NCBI RefSeq assembly: GCF_003334355.1
Contig: NZ_QOWP01000021.1
Reading direction: 5' to 3' (one strand)
Origin: Escherichia coli
GTDB taxonomy: Bacteria > Pseudomonadota > Gammaproteobacteria > Enterobacterales > Enterobacteriaceae
Length of the DNA stretch: 64,000 nt
The notes under the pieces were generated by a model. The model was not told where the DNA came from. It did not search any database and worked only from the letters and a program-made list of their open reading frames with translations. Below are positions 680 through 39,928 of the stretch, one piece after another. How positions within the stretch are numbered: position 1 is the first letter of the stretch; the number at the start of each line of letters is the position of its first letter. Made by a program: the position numbers and the translations under genes.

Positions 680-1648
<969 letters not shown>

Positions 1649-3793
1649 TTAAAGTGCACAGGAGACGCAGCCTTCAATTTCAGTGCCTTCCAGCGCCATC
1701 TGACGCAGGCGGATGTAATAGAGCGTTTTGATACCCTTGCGCCAGGCGTAAATCTGCGCTTTGTTGATATCGCGAGTGGTGGCGGTATCGGGGAAAAAAA
1801 GCGTCAGCGACAGCCCCTGATCGACATGGCGAGTCGCTTCCGCGTAGGTGTCGATGATCTTTTCTGCGCCAATTTCGTAAGCGTCCTGATACAGCGCCAG
1901 ATTCTCGTTAGTCATAAACGGGGCAGGGTAGTAAACGCGTCCTGTTTTGCCCTCTTTGCGTATCTCTACTTTCGCCACAATCGGATGAATACTCGACGTA
2001 GCATGGTTGATATAAGAGATAGAACCGGTTGGCGGCACCGCCTGAAGATTCTGGTTGTATATGCCGTAGCGCATCACGTCGTCGCGCAGCTGCGCCCACA
2101 TCTCACGGGTAGGTAACGTAATACCGCTACGGGTAAACAGTTCGCCAACTTTCGCCGTTTTCGGCTGCCAGTTCCCTTGCAGATATTGGCTAAAATATTC
2201 ACCACTGGCATAGCGTGACTGTTTGAACCCGGCGAAGGTTTCACCGCGTTCGCGTGCCAGCAACATCGAGGTACGCAGTGCATGCCAGGTGATGGCATAG
2301 AAATAGAGATTGGTGAAATCCAGTGCTTCCGGCGAACCATAAGCGATGCCTTCTCGCGCCAGATAGCCGTGTAAATTCATCTGCCCCAGTCCGATGGCGT
2401 GCGAGGCGGCATTTCCGGCTTCGATGGACGGCACGCTGCGGATATGACTCATATCTGATACTGCCGTTAAACCGCGCACGGCAGTCTCTACCGTGCGGGC
2501 AAAATCGGGGGAATCCATGGTGTGCGCAATATTCAACGAACCTAAATTGCAGGAAATATCATGGCCTGTGCGGGTATAGTCGAGATTCTCGTCATACTCT
2601 GAGGCGCTGTTAACCTGCAAAATTTCTGAGCAGAGATTACTCATATTTATGCGCCCGGCGATAGGGTTAGCACGGTTTACCGTGTCTTCATACATGATGT
2701 AGGGATAGCCGGACTCAAACTGGATTTCTGCCAGTCGCTGGAAGAAATCACGGGCGTTGAGGTATTTTTTGCGAATGCGTTCATCGGCAACCAGTTCGTC
2801 ATAGTGTTGGCTGATGGCCACATCGGCAAACGGCTTGCCATAAACTCGCTCTACGTCATAAGGCGAAAACAGCGCCATCTGCGCATTCTCTTTTGCCAGA
2901 TGGAAAGTGATATCCGGGATCACCACGCCAAGCGACAGTGTTTTAATGCGGATTTTTTCGTCGGCATTTTCCCGTTTCGTGTCGAGAAAACGCAGAATAT
3001 CGGGATGATGAGCATGTAAATAGACTGCACCAGCCCCCTGACGAGCGCCGAGTTGGTTGGCATAGGAAAATGCGTCTTCCAGCATTTTCATCACCGGAAT
3101 TACGCCAGAAGATTGATTTTCAATACGTTTAATTGGCGCGCCCGCTTCTCGCAGATTCGACAGCAAAAATGCTACGCCGCCGCCGCGTTTCGACAGCTGC
3201 AGTGCGGAATTTACCGCCCGACCAATCGACTCCATATTGTCTTCAATACGCAGCAAAAAACAGGAAACCAGTTCGCCGCGCTGCTGCTTACCGCAGTTGA
3301 GGAATGTTGGCGTGGCTGGCTGAAAGCGTCCTGACAGCATTTCATCGGTCAGTTGCAACGCCAGCGTCTCATCGCCTTGTGCCAGCGTCAGCGCCACCAT
3401 CGTTACTCGATCGGCAAAATCTTCCAGATAACGTTTACCGTCGAATGTCTTCAACGTATAGCTGGTGTAAAACTTCCATGCCCCGAGGAATGTCTGGAAA
3501 CGAAAACCGCTGGTGTGTGCGTGGGCAAACAGCGTAATGACAAAGTCGCGAGAGTAGCGATTAAGAACGCTTTCATCATAGTAACCTTCGTTGACCAGCC
3601 AGTTCAGGCGCTGCTGCTGGCTACTGAAGGTCACACTGTTCGGACGCACATGCGTCGCAATAAAGGCGTCAACGGCCTGGCGGTCTTTATCGAACTGAAT
3701 GCGACCTGCGCTATCGTAGAGGTTAAGCATCGCATTCAGCGCGTGGTAATCCATCGTTTCCTGCGTCAGGCATTCTGCGGTTGTCGTTGCCAA
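1649..3793 (-). CDS. nrdE: Class Ib ribonucleotide reductase alpha subunit NrdE
   Basis: 714-aa [29 protein letters not shown]...; sits between nrdI and nrdF. Confidence 0.95.
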
Positions 3794-4176
3794 AATTCGG
3801 TTACTCCTTTACGAACGTTTTCGATATCGCTTTGCGTACCCATGAGTTCAAAACGGTACAGCCACGGCACGCCGCATTTCCGGGCAATCACATCTCCGGC
3901 GCGGCCATACGCCTCACCAAAGTTGCGATTACCAGAAGCAATAACGCCGCGAAGCAACGCCCGGTTGTGCTCGTCGTTTAAAAAGCGAATTACCTGTCGT
4001 GGCACCGCGCCAGCCGTACCGCCGCCGCCGTAAGAGGGCACGATCAGGATGTAAGGCTCGTCTACCTGAATCCGTTCCCGCTCATTGAGCGGGATGCGCA
4101 CCGCGGGCAGACCTAAACGTTCGATAAAACGCTGCGTGTTTTCGGAGCTGCTGGAGAAGTAGACGAGCTGGCTCAT
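3766..4176 (-). CDS. nrdI: Flavodoxin-like protein NrdI
   Basis: 136-aa [20 protein letters not shown]...; overlaps nrdE start by 28 nt and nrdH stop by 4 nt. Confidence 0.95.
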
Positions 4177-4418
4177 GCACTGGCCGCGTGTGGCGCTGGA
4201 TGCAGACGGTTAATCATGTCCGGACGGAAACCAGACCAGCTAAGATCGCCAGCAATCACTACCGGCAACTGACGAAAGCCCTGAGCACGCAACGCTTCTG
4301 CCGCTTCAGGAACGCGATCGACATTAATCATTTCAAAATCAAAGCCCCGGTTTTCCATCGCCCGTTTGGTGGCGTGGCACTGAACGCAATCGTTACGAGT
4401 GTAAATAGTAATGCGCAT
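4173..4418 (-). CDS. nrdH: Glutaredoxin-like protein NrdH
   Basis: 81-aa [29 protein letters not shown]... with CVQC redox motif; first gene of the nrdHIEF operon. Confidence 0.95.
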
Positions 4419-4665
4419 GATTCGTATTTCCGTTTAAAATGAAGATACGGCGCGATGATACGCGTCGGGTTGTCTCTCTGTTGATACAGAGATACTAGAT
4501 GTAGTTGAAAAAAGATTCAACCACACAATATATAGCAAATAGTGGTCGAAATTACCCTGGATATGAGCGTGACGGGGTAGGGGGATTTTTGTGATTCACC
4601 AGGCAAAAAGAAACCCCGAAGACAGGCTTCGGGGTCAAAGACGCGTATTTATTATCATTTTTGCA

Positions 4666-4995
4666 CTACGATTTGCGCATGCTTAACAGTGCGCCGATAA
4701 AAATACCTACCGCAGCTGCTGTACCCACGCTACACCAGGGTCTTTCACGAACAAAAGAATCCGCGCAGCCAACGGCATCGCGCGCGGCTTGCTGGACGCG
4801 AGTACGACCATGCATTCGCGCCCTGGTTTCTTTCAGCAATGCCTGAGCTTTACTGCGTGCGGCTTCAGCTTCCCCTTTGGCGTCGCTGCCCCAGGACTTC
4901 AATACAGATTCGAGGCTGTCAGCTAATTGATTGACATCATTCTGGATATCCTGCACGCCATCATCAACGTCGTTGCGGTTCGGTCGGTTAAACAT
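4666..4995 (-). CDS. ygaM: ElaB/YqjD-family membrane-anchored protein YgaM
   Basis: ORF track gives 113 aa; start set at internal MFNRPNRNDVDD (109 aa) from recollection of YgaM; C-terminal hydrophobic anchor AAAVGIFIGALL. Confidence 0.8.
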   Translation of the reverse strand: MFNRPNRNDVDDGVQDIQNDVNQLADSLESVLKSWGSDAKGEAEAARSKAQALLKETRARMHGRTRVQQAARDAVGCADSFVRERPWCSVGTAAAVGIFIGALLSMRKS

Positions 4996-5146
4996 ATGAT
5001 CCCCCATTAGAATTCGATGTAATTTTCAGTGTAGACCATAATTTTCTTAACTGAGGTTCATCGCGGCTTTATGGACTTTTCTGAAAGCGTTGTGAATGCG
5101 CAATCAGGTAAGGTAGGCCCGCGGTTGATAATAACGAGGATCAAAT

Positions 5147-5491
5147 ATGTATTTACGACCAGACGAGGTGGCGCGCGTACTTGAAAAAGTCGGTTTTACT
5201 GTCGATGTGGTAACCCAGAAAGCGTATGGTTACCGCCGTGGGGAAAATTATGTCTATGTTAATCGCGAAGCGCGAATGGGACGTACCGCTCTGGTAATTC
5301 ATCCAACATTAAAAGAACGCAGTTCGACACTGGCTGAACCCGCTTCCGATATTAAAACTTGCGATCATTACCAGCAATTTCCGCTCTATTTAGCAGGCGA
5401 GCGACACGAGCATTACGGTATCCCGCATGGCTTTAGTTCGCGTGTTGCGCTTGAACGTTATTTGAATGGTTTATTTGGCGAAGCCAGTTAA
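5147..5491 (+). CDS. ygaC: Uncharacterized protein YgaC
   Basis: 114-aa [20 protein letters not shown]...; divergent from ygaM as in K-12. Confidence 0.85.
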
Positions 5492-5527
5492 AGACGCGAC
5501 TGGCGATGCCAGTCGCGAAAAGAAGAG

Positions 5528-5977
5528 TCAGGCTTTTACCTGCTGGTAACGGCTGACTTTAAACAGTCGGCGGCAATAATCGAGGAAGTAGCCATAAACC
5601 GCCCCCATCAACATCGAAACAACGATGTTTGAACTGACCGCCGCCATAATCTGATGCCAGTCTGCGCCCACCACTAACAAGATCGCCACATACACCGGTG
5701 ACTGGAACGTCACATAAGCCAGGATATCCGCCAGATTTTTTATCCAGCCCGACGGGCTAACTTTGCGTGCCGCGCGCATAAACAGATCACGGTACATACC
5801 GTATGGCCATGCAATTAAGATGTTCACCGGAATCGCTACCAATCTGGAATAAAAAGACTGTTCGAAGCTCATTCCGGAGAGGAAAACTTCAATACACATG
5901 TTCACGACAGAACAGTAAACAACCATCGCGAACGTATCTGCAACTGCATGACGCAAGCGTGACTGCGGTGAGAACAT
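5528..5977 (-). CDS. alaE: L-alanine exporter AlaE (YgaW)
   Basis: 149-aa hydrophobic [30 protein letters not shown]...; synteny. Confidence 0.85.
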
Positions 5978-6645
5978 GCTAATGCTCCTTAATAAAAGCG
6001 TAATGGGATGTTAATGGAGATGAAAGCAGTGGATCTCATTGCCATCTGCATTTTCGCATAGAGTATATCGCTGGCTATGACTAATCAATTAGTGAAAAAT
6101 TTTTATTTAGTCAGTTTTTGTAGATAAAATATTCCGTAACGGCTCGTTTTTTGTACATTGTGGATTTTTACATGCCGATATGATTTATTTTTAATTAAAT
6201 CAATTAGATATGGCCTTACCTTTAATATCACTAATGAAAGTTTGGGGGTGAGGTAACGCTATAAGCGTAGAGAATTCGGTGTATGTAGTAGCTGGGTCAT
6301 TTTCAGCATTTTTTATGCCAGACAATGTACATTAACAGCAGAAAGCACCAGTGATGGATGTTTTCTTTTATTCTGTTATATTGCATTTTTATTCACTTTG
6401 ATTTTGTCAGGCTTGCGGAATTAGCGAGCAGAGAGCGCCGCTCTGTTCACCAATAATCTAAATTACTCATCAAAATGGCTAATATATAATCTTGAAATTA
6501 TTCTGAGAGTTTCAGAAAATAACAGCTGAAATAATCTCGCGCAGGACTGTAAATAGATTAAATTTTGTGGAAATATAATAAGTGATCGCTTACACTACGC
6601 GACGAAATACTTTTTTTGTTTTGGCGTTAAAAGGTTTTCTTTATT

Positions 6646-7050
6646 ATGTCCGTAATGTTACAAAGTTTAAATAACATTCGCACCCTCCGTGCGATGGCTC
6701 GCGAATTCTCCATTGACGTTCTTGAAGAAATGCTCGAAAAATTCAGGGTTGTCACTAAAGAAAGACGTGAAGAAGAAGAACAGCAGCAGCGTGAACTGGC
6801 AGAGCGCCAGGAAAAAATTAGCACCTGGCTGGAGCTGATGAAAGCTGACGGAATTAACCCGGAAGAGTTATTGGGTAATAGCTCTGCTGCTGCACCACGC
6901 GCTGGTAAAAAACGCCAGCCGCGTCCGGCGAAATATAAATTCACCGATGTTAACGGTGAAACTAAAACCTGGACCGGTCAGGGCCGTACACCGAAGCCAA
7001 TTGCTCAGGCGCTGGCAGAAGGTAAATCTCTCGACGATTTCCTGATCTAA
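6646..7050 (+). CDS. stpA: H-NS paralogue StpA, nucleoid-associated protein
   Basis: 134-aa [35 protein letters not shown]...TWTGQGRTP; preceded by a long AT-rich upstream region. Confidence 0.95.
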
Positions 7051-7058
7051 TTACTGAG

Positions 7059-7093
7059 GCCGGATGTCGCTGCTAGGGCGCGTCCGGCGTCGC
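7059..7093. repeat. REP-like GC-rich palindrome downstream of stpA (possible terminator/REP element)
   Basis: gccggatgtcgctgctagggcgcgtccggcgtcgc: gccgga...tccggc inverted arms, similar to the REP consensus start GCCGGATG. Confidence 0.3.
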
Positions 7094-7096
7094 TTC

Positions 7097-7621
7097 TCAA
7101 GCTCGTTGGTTCCACGGCATCTTATCTAACAACCTTGCCATTCCACAAAAACCGCTGATTCCTGCAAACAGTAACCCGGCACCAACAAAGCCACTTAATA
7201 AGAAGAAACCGCTATTTACGGTATAACCCAGTACAACGCCGATTAATATTAAACCACCCGCAGCGATCTGCACCTGGCGCATTAACGGCAAGGGTTGAGA
7301 TTTATTTACCGCTACTGGCAATCCTGCTTTTTTCCAGCCATCAATCCCATCTTCGAGTAAAAAGATTTCTGCGGGGGCGGCAATCGCTGCTAATTTATCG
7401 GCATTATTACTGGTGCGTTTACCTGCCTGGCAGTGGAATATAATTTGCTCGTGACGTAATTTAGCCGGAAGAACTGACTGTTCCAGCACGGATAATGGAG
7501 CCAGATCTGCTTCAGGAATATGTTCACGAAGATATTCATCAGCATCACGAATATCGATTAACTTTGCGCCGCGTGCGATTAATTCTTGTGCATCATGCGG
7601 CGAAATGGTTGTCAAAGCCAT
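7097..7621 (-). CDS. ygaP: Rhodanese-domain inner-membrane sulfurtransferase YgaP
   Basis: 174-aa [33 protein letters not shown]...FHCQAGKRT (rhodanese active-site Cys loop), C-terminal TM segments. Confidence 0.9.
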
Positions 7622-7630
7622 AGTGACTCC

Positions 7631-7930
7631 TTACGGACAATAGACATTTTTCAGGGTGGCGATAATGGCATTTACCGCCTCATTTTTAATGGAATATAGA
7701 ATGCGTTGGGCATCCCGTTGGCTGTCGATAAGCCCTTCGTCCCGCATACGAGCGAGATGCTGTGATGTCGCAGAGGCACTCAGTCCGGTAATGCGCGTCA
7801 GCTCTCCCGCGCTGGTGCCGGGGGAACCGCTAAGCATGCACAGAATCAGCAATCGTTTAGGGTGGCTCATTGCTTTCAATAAGGCCGCTGCCTGTTCGGC
7901 ACTGGCCTGTAATTGCGCGAGTTCAGTCAT
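7631..7930 (-). CDS. ygaV: ArsR/SmtB-family transcriptional regulator YgaV
   Basis: 99-aa ORF with HTH region ...SAGELTRITGLSASATSQHLARMRDEGLI...; in operon with ygaP. Confidence 0.9.
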   Translation of the reverse strand: MTELAQLQASAEQAAALLKAMSHPKRLLILCMLSGSPGTSAGELTRITGLSASATSQHLARMRDEGLIDSQRDAQRILYSIKNEAVNAIIATLKNVYCP

Positions 7931-8112
7931 ATTTATTTAAGTATTTTCTAAATTAAGTAAACTCTAAACTAAAAATGCAACATATACCAGCCTCAGCAGC
8001 GTAAATGAGAGTAAAAGCGTAAGCTGAAACTGGCAGGCTCCGCTAAAATTACTACGCTTAAGAGATAAAATCTCTTTTTAAACAATGAGTAATTTTCTTA
8101 TAGGGAGTACAT

Positions 8113-8271
8113 ATGGGTTTCTGGAGAATCGTCATCACCATCATTCTGCCGCCGCTCGGCGTGCTGCTCGGTAAAGGGTTCGGTTGGGCGTTCATTATTA
8201 ATATTCTGTTGACACTGCTTGGGTATATCCCCGGTTTGATTCACGCGTTCTGGGTGCAAACCCGCGATTAA
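8113..8271 (+). CDS. yqaE: Pmp3/UPF0057-family small membrane protein YqaE
   Basis: 52-codon ORF MGFWRIVITIILPPLGVLLGKGFGWAFIINILLTLLGYIPGLIHAFWVQTRD read directly from sequence; absent from the ORF track because it is under the length cutoff. Confidence 0.85.
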   Translation: MGFWRIVITIILPPLGVLLGKGFGWAFIINILLTLLGYIPGLIHAFWVQTRD

Positions 8272-8354
8272 ACCTGTGCTCATCCCCGCGGCGTTAACGC
8301 GCCGCGTTCCTCTGCTACACTTTCTGAGTGTTTCCGTTAACGAATGAGGTAGCT

Positions 8355-8804
8355 ATGGGTCTGTTCAATTTTGTGAAAGATGCCGGAGAAAAACTCTGGG
8401 ACGCGGTTACAGGTCAGCACGATAAAGACGATCAGGCGAAGAAGGTGCAGGAGCATCTGAACAAAACCGGTATACCGGATGCCGATAAAGTGAATATTCA
8501 AATTGCCGACGGCAAAGCGACGGTCACTGGTGACGGCCTGAGTCAGGAGGCGAAGGAGAAAATCCTTGTTGCGGTGGGGAATATTTCCGGTATTGCCAGT
8601 GTCGATGATCAGGTGAAAACGGCGACACCAGCCACTGCCAGCCAGTTTTATACCGTTAAGTCTGGCGACACTCTGAGTGCCATTTCCAAACAGGTCTACG
8701 GTAACGCTAATCTGTACAATAAAATCTTCGAAGCGAATAAACCGATGCTAAAAAGCCCGGATAAAATTTATCCGGGGCAAGTGTTGCGTATTCCGGAAGA
8801 GTAG
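8355..8804 (+). CDS. kbp: Potassium-binding protein Kbp (YgaU), BON-LysM protein
   Basis: ORF track starts at 8328; start set at internal [18 protein letters not shown] (149 aa); C-terminal LysM-like [18 protein letters not shown]. Confidence 0.85.
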
Positions 8805-9467
8805 TTAATTGCCAGCCATCGCCTGCTGGATAATGGGAATTGGCGTCAGTAAATGCTGGCGCATTAACTCACTGGCGCGCGCGGTATCTCGCGCCAGTAC
8901 CGCCGCAGTCAGGGTCTGGTGCTGATCGTGTTTATCCTCCAGCATTTCCACCGAAAGCACCGTTCGCCGCAGCCAGATAAATCGATAACGCGCCGCCAGA
9001 TCAAACAACCGTTCACGCATTTGCAGCAAATAGTGAGAACCACAGCCCGCCACAATTGCCGTATGAAACGCCTGATGACGCAGATCCCACTCATCAAGCA
9101 TTTTCTCGCTGGCGTCACAGGCCTCAAGCTTACTCAGCAGATGCGCTTTTGCGAGAACGTCTGCCTCCCACTCATCGCCACCGCGGGCAATCGCCAGACT
9201 CACTAACATCGCTTCCATATTGGCGCGGGCGTCGAAAATATCGAGCAGCTCCTGCTCTGACATAGACGCCACCCGATACCCTTTTTGATTCACCACCGTG
9301 ACCAGCCGTTCCGCCACCAGTTGCGAAAGAGCTTCCCGTAACGGCCCAACGCCAAGTGCATAACGCGATGTCAGCAAACTCATTCGTAATTTTTCATCCG
9401 GTTGAAAATTACCGCGAATAATATCGTTCTTCAGCCAGCGATAGCCATCCAGAGACGTAATGGTCAT
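8805..9467 (-). CDS. csiR: GntR-family repressor CsiR (GabC)
   Basis: ORF track 226 aa; start set at MTITSLDGYRWLKNDIIRGNF (220 aa); lies downstream of gabP. Confidence 0.85.
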   Translation of the reverse strand: MTITSLDGYRWLKNDIIRGNFQPDEKLRMSLLTSRYALGVGPLREALSQLVAERLVTVVNQKGYRVASMSEQELLDIFDARANMEAMLVSLAIARGGDEWEADVLAKAHLLSKLEACDASEKMLDEWDLRHQAFHTAIVAGCGSHYLLQMRERLFDLAARYRFIWLRRTVLSVEMLEDKHDQHQTLTAAVLARDTARASELMRQHLLTPIPIIQQAMAGN

Positions 9468-13890: not shown

Positions 13891-15159
13891 TTATTGATTA
13901 AATGCGGCGTGTAAGGCATCCACACTACGTGCCGCTCGCAGCGTGCGTCCGGGGTTACTCTGGCTTGCCAACAGCGTTTGTACCTTGCTGACAATATGCG
14001 CACCAATAGGAATTGCTGATGTCGCTGCCGGGGAGGGCGCATTGCAGGTGTGGATCGTGCGCGGGGTGGTGACAAACAGAAAATCGTCAATCAGCTTGCC
14101 GTCCGGCGATACCGCCTGCGCCCGCACACCGGCGGGCCAGGGCTGGAGATCGCTTAACGAAAGCCGGGGACAATACTTTTGCACCAGCCGCAGATAGCCG
14201 CTTTTGCACAGCGAGTTTTTCATCTCGCCCAGTCCTGAGCGTAGATGGTTTTGCAGCACCCGGCGAATCCCCGACGAGCCCAAAATCTCCAGCGTGTCGC
14301 TAAATGAGAAGTCGCGCTTGCGATAGCCTTCGCGTTTGAAAGCCAGCACCGCGTTTGGCCCGACGGTCACGCTGCCGTCGATCATGCGGGTGAGATGAAC
14401 GCCCAAAAACGGCATTGCCGGGTCGGGAATGGGGTAAATCAGGTGGTTAACAATCTGGTTATGCTCCGGCGCAAGGCGGAAATACTCGCCACGGAACGGG
14501 CAGATGATAAAGCCCGGTTCGAGTCCGAGCATTTTCACCAGCCGGTCAGCCATCAGCCCGGAACAGCTAATCAGCGTTGATGCTTCATATTCGCCGCCCT
14601 GACGGGTACGTATCACCACGCCGTTTTTATGCTCATTAAGCCCGCTGACTTCGGCGTTATAGATAATTTCACCGCCTCTGGACTGGAAGATTTTTGCCAT
14701 CGCCGCCGTCACGTCGCGGTAGCTGACAATGCCGCTGGACGGCACAAAAATGCCGCCGAGCCCGGTGATATTCGGTTCGCGCTCGCGCAGTTCGTCGGCG
14801 TTAAGCCATTCGCGCTCGATACCGTTCGCCGCTGTGCGTTCCCATAAGGCGCGCATCCGTTCCATTTCGAGATCGGACGTGGCAACCAGCATCTTGCCGC
14901 AGTTGTCGTAGCGAATGCCGTTTTGATCGCAAAAGGCTTTGGTGGCGCGGTTTCCCGCCAGGCAAAACTGCGCCTTCAGGCTGCCGGGCGTGTAATAGAC
15001 CCCGGCATGGATCACGCCGCTGTTGTGGCCCGTCTGGTGACAGGCCGGGCCGGACTCTTTTTCCAGCAACGCAATGCGGGCGTCCGGATAGACATCAATT
15101 AGTTGCATGGCGGTCGACATGCCGATGATGCCGCCGCCAATAATCACAAAATCATACAT
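13891..15159 (-). CDS. lhgO: L-2-hydroxyglutarate oxidase/dehydrogenase LhgO (YgaF)
   Basis: ORF track 444 aa; start set at MYDFVIIGGGIIGMSTAMQL, which places the FAD GxGxxG motif at the N-terminus (422 aa). Confidence 0.9.
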   Translation of the reverse strand: MYDFVIIGGGIIGMSTAMQLIDVYPDARIALLEKESGPACHQTGHNSGVIHAGVYYTPGSLKAQFCLAGNRATKAFCDQNGIRYDNCGKMLVATSDLEMERMRALWERTAANGIEREWLNADELREREPNITGLGGIFVPSSGIVSYRDVTAAMAKIFQSRGGEIIYNAEVSGLNEHKNGVVIRTRQGGEYEASTLISCSGLMADRLVKMLGLEPGFIICPFRGEYFRLAPEHNQIVNHLIYPIPDPAMPFLGVHLTRMIDGSVTVGPNAVLAFKREGYRKRDFSFSDTLEILGSSGIRRVLQNHLRSGLGEMKNSLCKSGYLRLVQKYCPRLSLSDLQPWPAGVRAQAVSPDGKLIDDFLFVTTPRTIHTCNAPSPAATSAIPIGAHIVSKVQTLLASQSNPGRTLRAARSVDALHAAFNQ

Positions 15160-15178
15160 CCGCTCAATTCCTTTGCGC

Positions 15179-16270
<1,092 letters not shown>

Positions 16271-34075: not shown

Positions 34076-35017
34076 ATGGATGCACTGCATGTCGCGCTTG
34101 AAAATCTGATTAGAGATGATGGTCAAACACTAAATAGTTATTTTAGTGAAGTTAAAGTTAATTCATTGATTGAAAATACAAATGCAACTTGTCATTTTCA
34201 TTGCCTTAATCTTGATGGCAATGGACGTCCTCGGGTAGACGCGTTAATCCAATTCTTGAACGATAAAGTAGTTGATTATGCTATTCCAAGGAAAAAAATC
34301 AATGAGGCAGTGCAATATTTTAATGAAACACAATCAACAGCGAAAATAACAAAATTAGCAAATCAAGCAAAAAGATTATTTACTAGGCTTGCAAATAGTG
34401 GCGAAGGCGGTGAATTTATCCTTTTTTTATTTGCAGAGCAATTCCTTAGATTTCCACAAATTATTTGCAAAATGAGCCTGAAAACGAGTTCTCAAATGCA
34501 TTACCATGGTGCAGATGGAATACATATAGGCGTAGATAAAGATAATAAAAAATTATGTTTATACTGGGGCGAGTCTAAACTCTATTCCAGTCTGAGCAAA
34601 GGTATTTCTGAGTGTATGGATAGTATAGCTCCATTACTTCAAAGTTCTATGGGAATAGAAGGCGCTGAGACACGTGATATGCAGTTGCTGGAGTCGCACT
34701 TAAATGTTGATGATATAGAACTAGAACAAGCGTTGAAAAGATTCTTAGATCCTGATAGCCCGGATTTTAATAAATTGGAATACAGAGGAATATGCTTAGT
34801 TGGGTTTGATCTTAAAGATTATCCACAAGGGCCCAGTTCAATTGATATCAGTGAACTAGTTGCTTTGATTAATACTAAAGTCGGGAAATGGTCAACTAGT
34901 GTGCAAGGTGGTATAGTTAATAAAAAACTTGATCGCTTTGCTATGCATGTTTTTATTCTTCCTTTTCCTTCAGTAAAAGCATTTAGGGCTAGTTTAATTA
35001 AAGCATTGGAGAGTTGA
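34076..35017 (+). CDS. Nuclease-like protein with D...ExK-type motif; HamA-like (DUF1837-type) candidate, component A of a Hachiman-like defense pair
   Basis: 313-aa AT-rich ORF; HYHGADGIHIGVDKDNKKLCLYWGESKLY (about 34508-34578) fits a PD-(D/E)xK-like catalytic signature; stop sits 1 nt before the helicase start. Confidence 0.55.
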   Translation: MDALHVALENLIRDDGQTLNSYFSEVKVNSLIENTNATCHFHCLNLDGNGRPRVDALIQFLNDKVVDYAIPRKKINEAVQYFNETQSTAKITKLANQAKRLFTRLANSGEGGEFILFLFAEQFLRFPQIICKMSLKTSSQMHYHGADGIHIGVDKDNKKLCLYWGESKLYSSLSKGISECMDSIAPLLQSSMGIEGAETRDMQLLESHLNVDDIELEQALKRFLDPDSPDFNKLEYRGICLVGFDLKDYPQGPSSIDISELVALINTKVGKWSTSVQGGIVNKKLDRFAMHVFILPFPSVKAFRASLIKALES

Positions 35018-35018
35018 A

Positions 35019-37601
35019 ATGTCGTTGCGAGATTTATCTGGGTGGTTGATTAAGAATCAAGGATTCTTAAGAAAATATCAGGCATTAGTCGCTAACTCGA
35101 TAAAAGATCAATTTCCAGAGTTAAAATCAGATGTAATCCCACAGATTAGTTCTGAGGATGTCGGCTATCTTTTAACATGTGCTAGTTCTTTGGCTTTCTC
35201 AAGTGATGAGAAATGCCAAGATGCAGCCTTAAGGATTGCACAGTATTGCTTATTGAATGAAAAAAGTGAAGCAAGAAAAGATAGTGCTGCATTAATTCTT
35301 GATTCATTATCTAATAATCCAGCAATACAACTTGCTGAAAATAGGGGGTATCTTAACCCTGATTTCGAAGAAAGATTACCCTTAAAGGCTCAGTTAGAAC
35401 TAACTAAAAGAAAAATTCTATATACAATTGAAATAGATGCTGATAAGCATATTTATGCTAATAGGTTTCAATCAGAGTTTTGGGATGCGGTACAAGAAAA
35501 CTCATGGGTTAGTGTCTCTGCTCCCACCTCTGTAGGAAAATCATTTATCCTGGAATCTTGGGTGGAGCAGTTTGTAAAAAGAAATAAGAATTGCTTAGTT
35601 ATTTATATCGTACCAACAAGGGCATTGATTTCAGAAGTATATTCTGAGTTGCAAAAACGTTTGGATCCTAATTTAACAAATATAGTTAATATTCAGACAC
35701 TACCATTGAGTAATGTATACCAGAGCGAAAAATCTAATGTCTTCATATTTACACAGGAAAGATTAAATTTATTCTACAATCATTTCTCACAAATTCCAAA
35801 GATAGACGTCTTAGTTGTTGATGAAGCACACAAGATCGGTGATGGTGGAAGAGGTGTTATTCTTCAACATGTAATTGAACTGACTTGTCTAAATAACCCT
35901 GATTCAAAAGTTATCTTTGCAAGTCCTTTCACCTTAAATCCTGAAATATTGCTCAGTGATGCTCCAATATTAAAAAACAAAAGAACTATAAAAAGTGACT
36001 ATGTTACAGTTAATCAAAATTTAATATGGGTAGAACAAAAACCACGCAAGACCAAAGATTGGTTGATGTATTATTTTGCAAACGGTGAAAAACGCGAGTT
36101 AGGAAACTTTTCTTTAGAAAATGCACCATCTCCTGAAAGTAAAAGATTGCCTTTTGTAGCTCTTTGTTTAGGTAAGGGGGCTTCTGGTAACGTAGTTTAC
36201 GTAAATGGAGCCGCTGAAGCAGAATCTACTTCCAAGCTAATATCTGCAAGTATAGAAAATGAGACTGAGGATGAAGAAATTTTAGCTCTCGTTGAGCTTA
36301 GTGAGACAATTATACATAAAAATTTCGCATTAAATCGCACTCTAAAAAAGAGAGTCGCTTTTCATTATGGCAACATGCCTTTAATAATAAAGGGCGAGAT
36401 TGAACGATTGTTTAGTAAAGGTAAGATTGATTTTTTAATTTGTACCTCAACTTTAGTTGAGGGCGTAAACATGGCTTGTAAAAATATTTTTATAAGAGGC
36501 CCTAAAAAGGGTAATTCAACCCCGATGCGAGAAGAGGATTTTTGGAATCTTGCTGGCAGAGCTGGTCGTTGGGGAAAAGAATTCCAAGGTAATGTCATCT
36601 GCATCGATAGCGACAATGAAAAAATTTGGAATGGAGAGCCTCCAAAAACCAAAAAAAATATATTTATAACTCGCGCCACGGATGCTATTTCCCATGACAT
36701 GGATAAGTTGGTTTCCTATATTTTTTCAGAGCATCATTTTGGTATGTCTGAGCGGAATCCTAATCTCCAGAGTCTATTTAGTTATTTATGTTCATCATTT
36801 TATTTTTATAATGGCTTGGATAATAATCCTTACATGGAAAAGTACAATATAAAAAATATCGATGTTTTAAATGAAGCAATATTTGATGTTTTTGATTCTT
36901 TAACTTTTCCACACGAATTGGTTGTGCGGCATCCTGGTATAAGCCCGCTTTTAATGCAAAACCTTTGGGATAGATTTTCGCGGGATACAAACAAACCTGT
37001 AGAGAGATTACTGCTTTCTGAACCTGGTAGTAATGATGCGTTAGATTCATATGTATCCGCATTCTCTAGAATTAGTGATACTCTGAGTAAGAAGCTAGGT
37101 TATAATTCAAAAGGAGCTTACGTACAGGCCTTGCTAGTTTCCAAGTGGATGAAAGGTTATCCCCTAGCAAGATTGATCTCGGATAGAATAAGATATAACA
37201 AAAAGAAAAATATTGTTTTCAAAGAAGCGACTTTAATACGAGGGGTTATGAAGGATGTTGAAGAGATCGCTCGCTATCAAGCTCCAAGGCTTTTAGGATG
37301 TTATAATGATTTATTAAAAAGCTTTTATCTTTCGATAGATCGCACAGACTTAGCAAAAGATGTTGAAGATATCGGTGTTTATTTAGAACTAGGTGTAAGT
37401 TTAAAAACTCAGATTTCACTAATAGGGCTTGGCTTTTCAAGAACTGCTGCTGTAATGATTTCAGAGCTTATTCCTAATGATAGTTTAGATGAGGAAGAAT
37501 GCATTAATTGGATTAAGGACAATAAAGTTGACATGGAAGAACTGCCACAATTAGTTCAAAACGAAATACATAATATATTTCGTAACTTTTGGGTACAATA
37601 G
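35019..37601 (+). CDS. SF2 DEAH-box helicase; HamB-like candidate, component B of a Hachiman-like defense pair
   Basis: 860-aa ORF with motif I APTSVGKSF (about 35521-35547), motif II VVDEAHK (about 35815-35835), motif VI LAGRAGRWG (about 36551-36575), followed by a roughly 300-aa C-terminal extension. Confidence 0.6.
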   Translation: MSLRDLSGWLIKNQGFLRKYQALVANSIKDQFPELKSDVIPQISSEDVGYLLTCASSLAFSSDEKCQDAALRIAQYCLLNEKSEARKDSAALILDSLSNNPAIQLAENRGYLNPDFEERLPLKAQLELTKRKILYTIEIDADKHIYANRFQSEFWDAVQENSWVSVSAPTSVGKSFILESWVEQFVKRNKNCLVIYIVPTRALISEVYSELQKRLDPNLTNIVNIQTLPLSNVYQSEKSNVFIFTQERLNLFYNHFSQIPKIDVLVVDEAHKIGDGGRGVILQHVIELTCLNNPDSKVIFASPFTLNPEILLSDAPILKNKRTIKSDYVTVNQNLIWVEQKPRKTKDWLMYYFANGEKRELGNFSLENAPSPESKRLPFVALCLGKGASGNVVYVNGAAEAESTSKLISASIENETEDEEILALVELSETIIHKNFALNRTLKKRVAFHYGNMPLIIKGEIERLFSKGKIDFLICTSTLVEGVNMACKNIFIRGPKKGNSTPMREEDFWNLAGRAGRWGKEFQGNVICIDSDNEKIWNGEPPKTKKNIFITRATDAISHDMDKLVSYIFSEHHFGMSERNPNLQSLFSYLCSSFYFYNGLDNNPYMEKYNIKNIDVLNEAIFDVFDSLTFPHELVVRHPGISPLLMQNLWDRFSRDTNKPVERLLLSEPGSNDALDSYVSAFSRISDTLSKKLGYNSKGAYVQALLVSKWMKGYPLARLISDRIRYNKKKNIVFKEATLIRGVMKDVEEIARYQAPRLLGCYNDLLKSFYLSIDRTDLAKDVEDIGVYLELGVSLKTQISLIGLGFSRTAAVMISELIPNDSLDEEECINWIKDNKVDMEELPQLVQNEIHNIFRNFWVQ

Positions 37602-37693
37602 TCTTATTTAGACGATTTTTTAAACAATCAATAGAGAAGTTTTTGAATTTTATCATTCTTCCAGTAACAAAAACTTCTCTTTTATAACACCGC

Positions 37694-38152
37694 TCAGGCT
37701 ATTCCAGAATAGGCTTTGCTTACTTCACTATGCCTTGTGCCGCAATGCCTCAAAATAACAAGGCCATGTTGCAGTAACGCCTCACTACGTTCAGGTTCAA
37801 ACCATTTCCCGTTAAATTTTCCTCCGTGAAAAAGATTGTTTCTTACACGGCGGATTAACAAAAAAAGAAATTTTGCTAAATCTTTTTCTTGTGGTAAAGA
37901 ATCATCCCAAACTAAAGAGTCATCTTCTATGATTTGTTTTTTGGGTGGGTGTTCTTTAAAGTAGGTGATAGCAGCAATTAGCTCTGGATCAGTTGTGTTA
38001 TTTATGATTTCAGAAACTTGCTTTGCATACTCATCCCAGTTCGCTTTAGCATCTTTTATTTTATGATGAAGTCCACATGCCTTAAGGCAATATTCGTAAC
38101 GTGAAAACTCTCTAAAGAATTCATAACATAAATTATCTAGATTATTCTCCAT
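37694..38152 (-). CDS. Small HEPN-like protein candidate (Rx4H motif), possible abortive-infection/toxin-type RNase
   Basis: 152-aa ORF with GGAG RBS; motif RRVRNNLFHGG (about 37823-37855) fits the HEPN R-x4-6-H signature; divergent from the helicase gene and adjacent to int. Confidence 0.45.
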   Translation of the reverse strand: MENNLDNLCYEFFREFSRYEYCLKACGLHHKIKDAKANWDEYAKQVSEIINNTTDPELIAAITYFKEHPPKKQIIEDDSLVWDDSLPQEKDLAKFLFLLIRRVRNNLFHGGKFNGKWFEPERSEALLQHGLVILRHCGTRHSEVSKAYSGIA

Positions 38153-38181
38153 GAACTATATCTCCATGTATAACAAGTTAA

Positions 38182-39381
38182 CTAATATTGATTGCGCTCG
38201 TACACTTTTTGGCCCCACCAATTCATAAGTCCTATTCGTTGCTCAAGGTAAGTTGAACGATTATATGCTCTGCGCACTTCATTTTTATCACTATGTGCAA
38301 GAGCAGCCTCAATTACATCTGCATTAAAACCCGCTTCATTTAATGCGGTGCTGGCAATTGAACGCAATCCATGAGCAACCAATCTACCACCAAATCCAAT
38401 CCTTTTTAAAGCAGCATTTGCCGTCTGGCTATTCATTGGTTGCTTTGGGTCATTCCGACTCGGGAAAACATGTTCACGATGGGCACTGATTAGCTTCATC
38501 ACATCAAGAATCTCTAATGCCTGAGGAGATAGAGGGACTATGTGTTCCCGCTTAGCCTTCATTCGTTCAGCTGGGATAGTCCAGAGCTTTGCATCGAGAT
38601 CGAGCTCAGCCCACCTAGCACCGGAAGCCTCAGAAGGACGAACTAGAGTCAGGAGTTGCCACTCAATGAGGCAGCGAGTCGGAACAGACAAATTTGACAT
38701 GACGAGAGAACGCATCAGCATAGGCAATTCTTCTGGGCGCAACGTAGGCATATTTTGTTTTTTTGGCTTCTCAAAGGCCATTCCAATGCCTGATGCTGGA
38801 TTGGCATCAATAAGACCAGTATTTACGGCATAAATCATTATCTCGTTAACACGCTGCACCAACCGGCGCACCGTCTCCAGCGCCCCACGAGCTTTGATCG
38901 GTTCAAGGGCTTCAACCAGTGTTCGGGCTTTGATTTGCTGGACAGGGATCTCCCCGATGGTGGGGAATACGTCTTTTTCCAGTGAACGCCATATATCTTT
39001 AGCGTAATCATGGGTAACGCTTTTGCTTTTGAGCTGGAACCAGTTAGCGGCGACCGTCGAAAAAATACTGTCCAGAGCGATTTGCTGCTGTTCCTCTGCA
39101 ACTTCAGCTTGAATTTGCGGGTCGATTCCGTTGGCTAATAGGGCAAGGTAATCTGCTCTTAACCCTCGGGCATCAGCAAGAGAAAGGGCAGGAAAAGCAC
39201 CAAGTCCCATCATAGTCCGCTGTTTTGTTGCTGGGCGTTGATAGCGAAAGCGCCAGAGTTTCTTGCCGCTAGTTTTCACTATCAGGAAAAGCCCATCGCC
39301 ATCATGCAGCGTTAGATCCTTCTCTAACGCTTTCGCGCGCAGAACTTCGGTGTTGGTCAGGGGGCGTGTTGTCCGTGCCAC
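38182..39381 (-). CDS. intA: P4-type tyrosine integrase (IntA/SlpA-like), GTG start
   Basis: 399-aa ORF ...HDGDGLFLIVKTSGKKLWRFRYQRP... with C-terminal catalytic HGLRSIASTAL and RRAYNRSTY (Tyr); starts about 185 bp from the ssrA 3' end. Confidence 0.9.
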   Translation of the reverse strand: MARTTRPLTNTEVLRAKALEKDLTLHDGDGLFLIVKTSGKKLWRFRYQRPATKQRTMMGLGAFPALSLADARGLRADYLALLANGIDPQIQAEVAEEQQQIALDSIFSTVAANWFQLKSKSVTHDYAKDIWRSLEKDVFPTIGEIPVQQIKARTLVEALEPIKARGALETVRRLVQRVNEIMIYAVNTGLIDANPASGIGMAFEKPKKQNMPTLRPEELPMLMRSLVMSNLSVPTRCLIEWQLLTLVRPSEASGARWAELDLDAKLWTIPAERMKAKREHIVPLSPQALEILDVMKLISAHREHVFPSRNDPKQPMNSQTANAALKRIGFGGRLVAHGLRSIASTALNEAGFNADVIEAALAHSDKNEVRRAYNRSTYLEQRIGLMNWWGQKVYERNQY

Positions 39382-39400
39382 TGTGGCCGCTCCTTCATGA

Positions 39401-39456
39401 ATTGGTATACGCTTTTAGGTATACATCCTACCGTATACCTAAACGTATACCAATAA
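39401..39456. promoter_or_regulatory. 56-bp palindrome in the int upstream region (candidate Int arm-type/operator sites)
   Basis: ATTGGTATACGCTTTTAGGTATAC ... GTATACCTAAACGTATACCAAT: the two 22-24 nt arms are near-perfect reverse complements; one arm recurs at 27210-27231. Confidence 0.45.
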
Positions 39457-39493
39457 TCATCGGATTTAGCCGGATGTTCTCGGACAACGACAA

Positions 39494-39530
39494 ACACAAA
39501 AAAGCCCGCAGGGCTTGTGCCATGCGGGCT
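39494..39530 (-). terminator. Rho-independent terminator downstream of ssrA
   Basis: On the minus strand gcccgca...tgcgggc hairpin followed by cttttttgt, about 35 nt past the tmRNA CCA end. Confidence 0.6.
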
Positions 39531-39565
39531 TTCTGTACTTCACCGGACGTATCCGGATCATTATT

Positions 39566-39928
39566 TGGTGGAGCTGGCGGGAGTTGAACCCGCGTCCGAA
39601 ATTCCTACATCCTCGGTACTACATGCTTAGTCAGTCTTTACATTCGCTTGCCAGCTGCGGACGGACACGCCACTAACAAACTAGCCTGATTAAGTTTTAA
39701 CGCTTCAACCCCAGGCAGGGCTTCCACGCGATCTCTTTTGGGTTTGACCTCTCTTGATCCCCGTCCTAAGAGCGGAGGCTAGGGAGAGAGGGCTCTAAGC
39801 AGGTTATTAAGCTGCTAAAGCGTAGTTTTCGTCGTTTGCGACTATTTTTTGCGGCTTTTTACGAGGCCAACCGCCCCTCGGCATGCACCTTGGGTTTCGC
39901 AAATCCCGTCGAATCCAGAATCAGCCCC
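39566..39928 (-). ncRNA. ssrA: tmRNA (SsrA), 363 nt
   Basis: Reverse complement reads GGGGCTGATTCTGGATTCGACGGGATTTGCGAAACCC...tag-peptide region...GGACGCGGGTTCAACTCCCGCCAGCTCCACCA, the E. coli tmRNA with tRNA-like ends. Confidence 0.95.

Follow-up and report, generated by a model that had tools for sequence, protein, structure and literature searches.

The window analysed here is a stretch of 64,000 nucleotides (nt) of Escherichia coli DNA (NCBI RefSeq assembly GCF_003334355.1, contig NZ_QOWP01000021.1), and the subject of this study is a small open reading frame (ORF) within it, the product of which carries a motif of the type found in the active sites of HEPN RNases. The ORF occupies positions 37694..38152 on the minus strand, starts with ATG and encodes 152 amino acids (aa); it is annotated in RefSeq as WP_016809720.1, 'hypothetical protein', and its product matches phrog_19013, a PHROG of unknown function, at 1e-93. 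An earlier note on this DNA, made from the letters only, had placed the ORF between a helicase gene and an integrase gene, and this position was confirmed: the helicase gene stops at 37601, and a P4-type tyrosine integrase gene (int; minus strand; NCBIfam NF007246, 1.7e-176) occupies 38182..39381. What the note had called a helicase operon does contain a helicase, and its fuller identity is that of a Hachiman defence system, consisting of HamA (313 aa; 34076..35017, plus strand; PADLOC HamA1, E 1.7e-135) and the helicase HamB (860 aa; 35019..37601, plus strand; PADLOC HamB1, E = 0). The ORF indeed lies on the strand opposite to the helicase gene; however, the two genes are not divergent as had been proposed, but converge tail to tail at a distance of 92 nt, and the ORF is co-directional with int, the stop codon of which (38182) lies 29 nt upstream of the ORF start.

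The immediate flanks of the ORF are short. The GGAG ribosome-binding site described previously was found at 38162..38165 on the minus strand (CTCC on the plus strand), 9 nt upstream of the ATG and within the 29-nt spacer that follows the int stop. In the 92 nt that separate the stop codons of HamB and the ORF, the repeat search detected an AT-rich inverted repeat with 16-nt arms and a 22-nt loop (37630..37683, no strand assigned), which is possibly a bidirectional terminator; a stricter terminator scan did not call it. A simple promoter scan of positions 37400-39700 revealed no sigma-70-like site, which weakly suggests read-through from int, and the ORF may therefore be expressed with that gene. 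No tandem repeats or arrays like those of type III toxin-antitoxin systems were found by the repeat search on either side of the ORF, and since the flanks measure only 29 nt and 92 nt, there would be no room for a repeat-type RNA antitoxin.

The motif itself, RRVRNNLFHGG, corresponds to residues 101-111 of the product and includes R104-x4-H109 with a polar asparagine directly after the arginine. The codons for residues 102-114 (R-V-R-N-N-L-F-H-G-G-K-F-N), an invariant block with the predicted catalytic residues R104, N105 and H109, are located at 37811..37849 on the minus strand, where AGA (Arg) at 37841-43 and CAC (His) at 37826-28 were checked by hand. RNNLFH was present in all 120 close homologues. 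Among 53 distant homologues with 30-45% identity, the arginine, the histidine and their spacing were kept in every case; 46 were identical over the motif and seven differed at one inner position (for example RDNLFH or RHNLFH). Two alignments, one of 61 close homologues and one of 42 distant homologues, share nine invariant columns (F16, E20, L23, K24, W39, R104, H109, G110 and K112), and N105, N106, P69/P70 and W82 are invariant in one of them, with a conservation of 90% or more in the other; for N105, the invariant set is the close one. R-N-N-L-F-H thus shows essentially no variation across about 170 homologues, including those with identities as low as 30%. The Rx4H motif is therefore not a chance match but a genuine, invariant HEPN-type signature, as the earlier note had tentatively proposed, and the lack of conservation of R and H among homologues that it had named as a ground for rejection was not observed.

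The ORF belongs to a large and widespread protein family. A word-indexed search identified 696 homologues among clusters formed at 90% identity, nearly all of which are 147-170 aa long and without a Pfam domain. In an exhaustive profile search, clusters formed at 50% identity numbered 2045 at E<=1e-3 and 1543 at E<=1e-10; the median length of the family, based on the top 150 of the profile-search clusters, is 161 aa. The hosts include Proteobacteria, Bacteroidota, Planctomycetota, Acidobacteriota, Chloroflexota, Deinococcota, Synergistota and methanogenic Archaea. Moreover, an orthologue with 91% identity is carried by a Raoultella/Klebsiella-type version of the mobile element described below, and its comparison with the ORF gave a ratio of nonsynonymous to synonymous substitution rates (dN/dS) of 0.17, which indicates that the ORF is under purifying selection. 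Together with the ATG start, the 152 uninterrupted codons and a confident structural model, the homologues and this selection show that the ORF is real and well formed.

An AlphaFold2 model of the product had a predicted local distance difference test score (pLDDT) of 91.9 and a predicted template-modelling score (pTM) of 0.88. It contains five helices (residues 2-25, 39-51, 56-67, 92-107 and 124-140) and two beta-hairpins (72-83 and 111-118). In this predicted model, R104 and N105 end the helix 92-107 and H109 lies in the next loop, which is followed by the helix 124-140. HEPN domains are described as up-down helical bundles with an Rx4-6H motif at the C-terminal end of helix 3 and the start of the loop leading to helix 4 (PMC3710099), with a polar residue after the arginine, an upstream Ex3[KR] motif and, often, inserts between helices 2 and 3 (PMC3710099; Anantharaman et al. 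2013). The predicted position of the motif, the polar residue and the hairpin insert 72-83 fit the description in PMC3710099, and the structure prediction suggested in the earlier note thus placed R at the end of a helix and H in the following loop of a helical bundle, as for HEPN. E20x3K24, which is encoded at 38081..38095 on the minus strand (E20-Y-C-L-K24) in the first helix and has both its charged residues invariant in the two alignments, may be the counterpart of the second, acidic HEPN motif Ex3[KR]. A Foldseek search of AFDB50, a clustered set of AlphaFold database (AFDB) models, gave 79 matches at E<1e-3 with TM values of 0.8-0.88; these targets are 150-180-aa proteins carrying UniProt names of Apea-like, RiboL-PSP or pEK499-p136 HEPN. 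HepT toxins (PDB 5yep, 7ae2, 8xdj, 1wwp and 1jog) were the best matches among solved structures. All in all, the product very probably has a HEPN fold in which the catalytic motif is intact.

Comparison with characterised HEPN systems shows where the ORF product resembles them and where it departs. ApeA (Gao_Ape; HEPN_Apea, PF18739) is a single-gene anti-phage tRNA anticodon nuclease that is found in P4 hotspots and restriction-modification loci; it shares the HEPN core and the R-x4-H site with the ORF product, and HEPN_Apea is the only Pfam family touched by any member of the ORF family. However, the length of ApeA is about 580 aa, and its N-terminal and Mid domains form a ligand pocket together with a split 250-aa HEPN, whereas the 152-aa product is devoid of these domains and is matched neither by Pfam HEPN_Apea nor by the ApeA models of PADLOC. 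HepT of the HEPN/MNT (HepT-MntA) modules is likewise a minimal HEPN domain of similar size (120-140 aa), but it is always AMPylated by an adjacent MNT antitoxin and has an Rx4HxY motif; the ORF family lacks an MNT neighbour, has the motif RNNLFHGGKFN and contains two beta-hairpin inserts. In DARNA (PD-T7-3), the HEPN domain is N-terminal, measures about 160 aa and contains an R-x4-H site; unlike the ORF product, which has no extra sensor domain, DARNA also has a Pds5-like C-terminal domain that binds single-stranded DNA. Csm6/Csx1 differ in having a CARF sensor domain that binds cyclic oligoadenylate, whereas the ORF product has no CARF domain. On the other hand, the integron-cassette HEPN (PDB 3jrt) and other small families of Anantharaman et al. 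2013 are, like the ORF, stand-alone cargo of mobile elements. The ORF product is thus most like ApeA or HepT-type HEPN RNases and yet lacks what defines membership in either. Within the HEPN superfamily it represents a separate and uncharacterised family, which is absent from Pfam, NCBIfam, PADLOC 2.0 and the literature searched, although some of its members are already labelled 'Apea-like HEPN domain-containing' in UniProt.

The ORF is part of an island next to ssrA, the gene for tmRNA (39566..39928, minus strand; RNA gene searches), which serves as the integration site; the integrase gene adjoins ssrA/tmRNA and smpB. Rfam models located the C4 antisense RNA (P4 immunity RNA) and isrK at 30594-30681 and 30750-30827, respectively, both on the minus strand. 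In a near-identical element of E. coli strain 190, psu, an ogr/delta-like gene, an alpha-type primase-helicase and an Icd-like gene are annotated. Based on the C4 RNA, isrK, the P4-type integrase and these strain 190 genes, the island is identified at the sequence level as a P4-like satellite in which the ORF lies within the psu/delta-int segment, a known hotspot for antiviral systems in such satellites (PMC9122126). In strain 190 (14011-16025 of the fetched locus), a second integrase and a lambdoid prophage come after the P4-like element, so that ssrA does not directly follow it. This tandem array of mobile elements at the same attachment region differs from the arrangement in the window.

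Within the satellite, the ORF behaves as cargo. When int is compared with the integrases of 339 other E. coli genomes, to which it is 82-88% identical, the similarity stops at 38204-38213, at its 3' end, and the GC content is about 32-37% across HamA, HamB and the ORF (36% in the ORF) compared with 48-52% in int and the backbone (48% in int). This homology break and the drop in GC indicate that the ORF is cargo and not backbone, in agreement with the previous suggestion of a stand-alone gene occupying the same hotspot. The bulk of the low-GC cargo (34076-37601, plus strand) is made up of the Hachiman system, which is complete and of type I. The ORF was found in 20 of the 5426 complete E. coli genomes, always with HamAB alongside and every time annotated as 'hypothetical protein'. 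Compared with the Raoultella/Klebsiella-type copy of the satellite, the synonymous divergence (dS) is 0.29 for the ORF, 0.24 for HamA, 0.22 for HamB and 0.37 for int, and these similar values imply that the block has been co-inherited.

Such co-inheritance raises the possibility that the ORF encodes a third, accessory component of this Hachiman variant, since the gene and HamAB travel as one low-GC block with similar dS in the 20 complete E. coli genomes and in the Raoultella-type element. However, all 20 genomes carry one and the same element lineage, and it is only in this lineage that HamAB neighbours the ORF; obligate co-occurrence with Hachiman is, as far as the sampled sequences indicate, not a property of the ORF family. 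The Hachiman loci of P4 hotspots listed in the tables of Rousset have two genes only. No cluster of HamA/HamB homologues (helicase/DUF1837) was found near any of 80 distant homologues, and the ORF is on the other strand, is separated from HamB by the hairpin and matches no PADLOC Hachiman model. For these reasons the ORF appears to stand beside Hachiman without being a component of it, and an accessory role is extremely improbable.

The search for a partner gene covered these 80 distant loci, which were taken from contigs representing one genome per species and in which all ORFs within 4 kb were clustered all-against-all, as well as about 15 closer loci. No neighbour family was conserved in the 80 distant loci, the largest cluster within 4 kb being the type I restriction subunit HsdR in six of them, and the partner or immunity gene that the earlier note had thought possible was not seen in cis in either set. 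The absence of a conserved neighbour, the unrelated contexts and the small flanks all suggest that the gene is autonomous. These data also bear on the proposal that the product is the toxin of an addiction module which stabilises the mobile element, with an antitoxin that has escaped recognition (a small RNA, an antisense transcript or a host factor). Minimal HEPN domains are indeed the toxins of HepT/MNT modules, which provide the closest solved folds, and the gene rides satellites, prophage ends and small plasmids, beside integrases or resolvases. However, neither an MNT nucleotidyltransferase gene nor any other conserved neighbour occurs in the 80 loci (the genes flanking the ORF in the window are int and HamB), the 29-nt and 92-nt flanks hold no repeat array like those of type III systems, and a Citrobacter plasmid that carries a homologue already has ccdAB. 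An addiction module is therefore very unlikely.

The mobile contexts of the family are diverse. In E. coli, a homologue lies between icd and the integrase of a lambdoid prophage. Another homologue was found at a prophage end after a serine recombinase and a DUF2971/PDC-S31 gene. Homologues also occur on plasmids of 4.9-6 kb from Citrobacter, Enterobacter and Klebsiella. On Citrobacter freundii pNFYY328-6 (4942 bp), which carries ccdAB, a 49%-identical homologue (970-1443) is among the few cargo genes and lies downstream of rep and a gene for a signal-peptide protein; the latter, a 157-aa gene upstream, was considered as a partner and rejected as unrelated. In Escherichia phage vB_EcoM-683R1, a 29%-identical homologue (5926-6438) is present as a moron between the tail and baseplate genes of this myovirus. 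In Pantoea, a trio of resolvase, DUF2188 and HEPN genes is located beside a swappable conflict system; at the spot concerned (3300-6350), one strain has a three-gene conflict system (DUF2326/MC8/CTD12) and another has two unrelated genes (556 and 350 aa), which marks it as a local swap hotspot. Moreover, homologues were found after IetA/IetS in Pectobacterium and, in the same position, in Enterobacter ludwigii, where the locus is at the ssrA integrase. The loci in E. ludwigii (1217-7480) and Pectobacterium/Dickeya (3190-8477) comprise IetA, IetS, conserved unannotated genes of 70 aa and 243 aa, which may be unrecognised Iet accessories, and then the gene for the small HEPN protein (mini-HEPN). 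The E. ludwigii locus has a DUF4365 gene in addition, and its block abuts an integrase beside smpB, the same chromosomal neighbourhood as in the window.

Given such carriers, the product might instead be an enzyme in the service of the mobile element, either degrading cyclic-oligonucleotide signals as a counter-defence or processing transcripts of the satellite or its helper phage. Some HEPN enzymes deplete cyclic oligoadenylate signals, the carriers include a satellite, plasmids and a phage, and the 29-nt gap and the lack of a detected promoter-like site make co-transcription with int possible. Most occurrences, however, are chromosomal and within restriction or other defence operons, which would be an unusual site for counter-defence genes, and in the sampled neighbourhoods the gene is linked neither to CBASS nor to type III CRISPR loci; a role of this kind is considered very unlikely.

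HEPN genes in defence islands are to be expected, and the neighbourhoods of the family conform to this. From the distant loci, 20 neighbours that were large, tightly linked and on the same strand were picked blind to annotation and compared with PADLOC models at E<=1e-5; 13 of them had a match: AbiJ, a weak LmuA, AbiEii, a type II restriction endonuclease (REase), PDC-S31, PD-Lambda-3_B, a PLD nuclease (DrmC/ZacB-like), an endonuclease effector, HerA, a type III Mod upstream of the homologue and the Res downstream of it, a weak PbeA and PDC-S06. Half of the genes located 3.5-5 kb away in the same loci (5/10) matched defence models as well, which indicates that the whole neighbourhoods are defence islands and that these genes are not a true null for enrichment. 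A same-strand neighbour of at least 150 aa was present within 60 nt in 35 of the 80 loci, and at one locus the stop of the homologue overlaps the HsdR start. A rare case is the metagenomic homologue P0130 (349 aa), in which an Mrr_cat restriction-endonuclease domain (61-171, E 5.6e-20) is fused to a mini-HEPN (202-348). This was the only N-terminal extension that could be confirmed as a fusion; others may be mis-called starts, and NCBIfam gave no match on the longer fusion-like homologues. Taken together, the neighbourhoods amount to a classic defence-gene signature, from which toxicity and an anti-phage role are inferred by guilt by association only.

Two of the operons merit a separate description. 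In a metagenome-assembled genome of Pyrinomonadaceae (3965-9030), the mini-HEPN gene is flanked by the mod and res genes of a type III restriction-modification operon, from which gaps of 2 and 18 nt separate it; this placement recalls PrrC in EcoprrI. In two Roseovarius genomes (3213-6453 in one of them), genes for DREN(REase)-APAZ, a short pAgo and the mini-HEPN follow one another, and the start of the HEPN gene overlaps the pAgo stop; this operon would amount to a SPARDA-type system to which a HEPN gene has been added.

Close linkage of this type could also mean that the product is a back-up or guard effector of the adjoining system, similar to PrrC, that is held latent by its neighbour (here Hachiman) and freed when a phage inhibits that neighbour. 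The gene is often operonic with other systems, as the mod/res gaps of 2 and 18 nt, the overlaps with the pAgo stop and the HsdR start and the 35/80 loci illustrate, and in PrrC, which is a HEPN anticodon nuclease, regulation occurs by protein-protein interaction. PrrC and RloC resemble the family in that their HEPN catalytic domain is encoded in type I (or III) restriction-modification operons, and a subset of the family lies beside HsdR or between mod and res. They differ in having a large N-terminal ABC-ATPase domain, which is absent from the single-domain ORF product; the latter has no PrrC match in NCBIfam or PADLOC, and most members of its family are outside restriction-modification loci. 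Moreover, the neighbours are mutually unrelated, and specific masking of one highly conserved 150-aa protein by all of them is unlikely, whereas the homologues on 4.9-kb plasmids and in the phage tail cluster have no defence neighbour at all. A guard function is thus unlikely, though less so than the other roles considered above.

Based on the above evidence, the product is best regarded as an autonomous, dimeric, single-domain HEPN RNase that acts in defence or abortive infection and is carried as P4-hotspot cargo, an interpretation to which a little better than an even chance is assigned. Considered separately, an anti-phage or abortive function has about an even chance or slightly above it, and tRNA as the target is a tentative and rather doubtful assignment. 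ApeA, DARNA/PD-T7-3, PrrC, HepT, Csm6 and Cas13 are dimeric, metal-independent RNases, most of which cut tRNA anticodon loops or mRNA; among characterised HEPN defence proteins, tRNA anticodon loops are the target met with most often. By analogy, the product would form a homodimer through the HEPN core, in which the two Rx4H motifs would build one metal-independent RNase site. A tandem copy of the product, joined by a (GGGGS)6 linker and modelled by AlphaFold2 with a paired alignment of 19 sequences, reached a pTM of 0.82, an overall score that would be consistent with the defined homodimer expected for HEPN. Phage infection would then lead to the cutting of host and/or phage RNA, and this cleavage would stop translation and protect the satellite-carrying population through abortive infection or growth arrest. 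What restrains characterised HEPN immune proteins is a sensor domain, a partner protein, an RNA antitoxin or a covalent modification. Since there is neither a sensor domain nor a cognate antitoxin gene in the present case, latency would have to come from the domain itself, in the form of a gate controlled by ligand or substrate, substrate specificity or tight expression. The strictly conserved non-catalytic residues W39, P69-P70-K-K-Q73, W82, G110-G-K-F-N114 and R122 are candidates for such a built-in gate or ligand site.

Several observations weigh against this interpretation. The dN/dS of the ORF is three to four times that of HamA and HamB. The ORF product had no Pfam match even at E<=10, no NCBIfam match and, in PADLOC at E<=1, no usable match and no ApeA model, and Foldseek found no meaningful match in the PDB. 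Only marginal contact with HEPN_Apea was made at E<=1e-3, by none of the 61 close and one of the 42 distant members (E 6e-4). Moreover, the Ex3K is located in the first helix of the model and not in helix 2 as in canonical HEPN domains. A constitutive RNase with neither sensor nor antitoxin should be toxic, yet this one must stay silent. Finally, WP_016809720.1 and phrog_19013 were not mentioned in the literature searched.

The lack of a significant Pfam or PDB sequence match and of a meaningful Foldseek match in the PDB might be taken to mean that the product is not a HEPN protein but a small helical protein with a non-nucleolytic role, its R...H likeness having arisen by convergence. Against this, the full signature (R, polar residue, three further residues, H) is found at the correct modelled position together with an upstream Ex3K, and the AFDB neighbours bear HEPN names that come from independent models; this alternative is regarded as about as unlikely as an addiction module. 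None of the computational outcomes that the earlier note had listed as contradicting its proposal (no HEPN-like fold, no conservation of R and H) was obtained. Among the weaker matches, the best sequence-profile match in the PDB (E 0.13) was 8y75, deposited only as 'CRISPR-associated protein', with RNnLfHGG aligned to RNSVAHGG. PADLOC matches to Cas8c (E 0.009 and 0.023) were weak, covered a helical stretch and were treated as noise, and matches to M-CSF in searches of PDB sequences with profiles from the two alignments were spurious.

With regard to previous reports, a literature search for stand-alone HEPN defence genes found none. The supplements of Rousset 2022 do not contain WP_016809718-20, and the 'Putative HEPN' (pFR103) of that study is an unrelated large protein. 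In a 2026 preprint on P4/P2 hotspots, no small HEPN gene was among those tested.

A more far-reaching extension of the RNase interpretation is that the protein serves as a universal plug-in effector placed in heterologous defence operons (type III mod/res, SPARDA-type pAgo, Hachiman, IetAS and HerA) and activated either by some cue common to infections or when the host system fails, a notion that is still speculative and on balance improbable. One example of such a cue would be nucleic-acid breakdown products sensed at the invariant W39/W82/PPKKQ/GGKFN surface. If this were true, the protein would be the smallest known self-regulating immune RNase.

No model for the family, which comprises approximately 2,000 clusters at 50% identity, exists in PADLOC 2.0, Pfam or NCBIfam, and current defence-annotation pipelines relying on these sets would pass over it. 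In the window, the P4 hotspot probably holds two defence modules, Hachiman and the mini-HEPN, instead of one. If active, the protein would be among the smallest one-gene immune effectors, which raises the question of how a bare HEPN RNase stays harmless without a sensor domain or an antitoxin. Moreover, its placement inside the operons of other systems may offer a way to test layered or back-up immunity.

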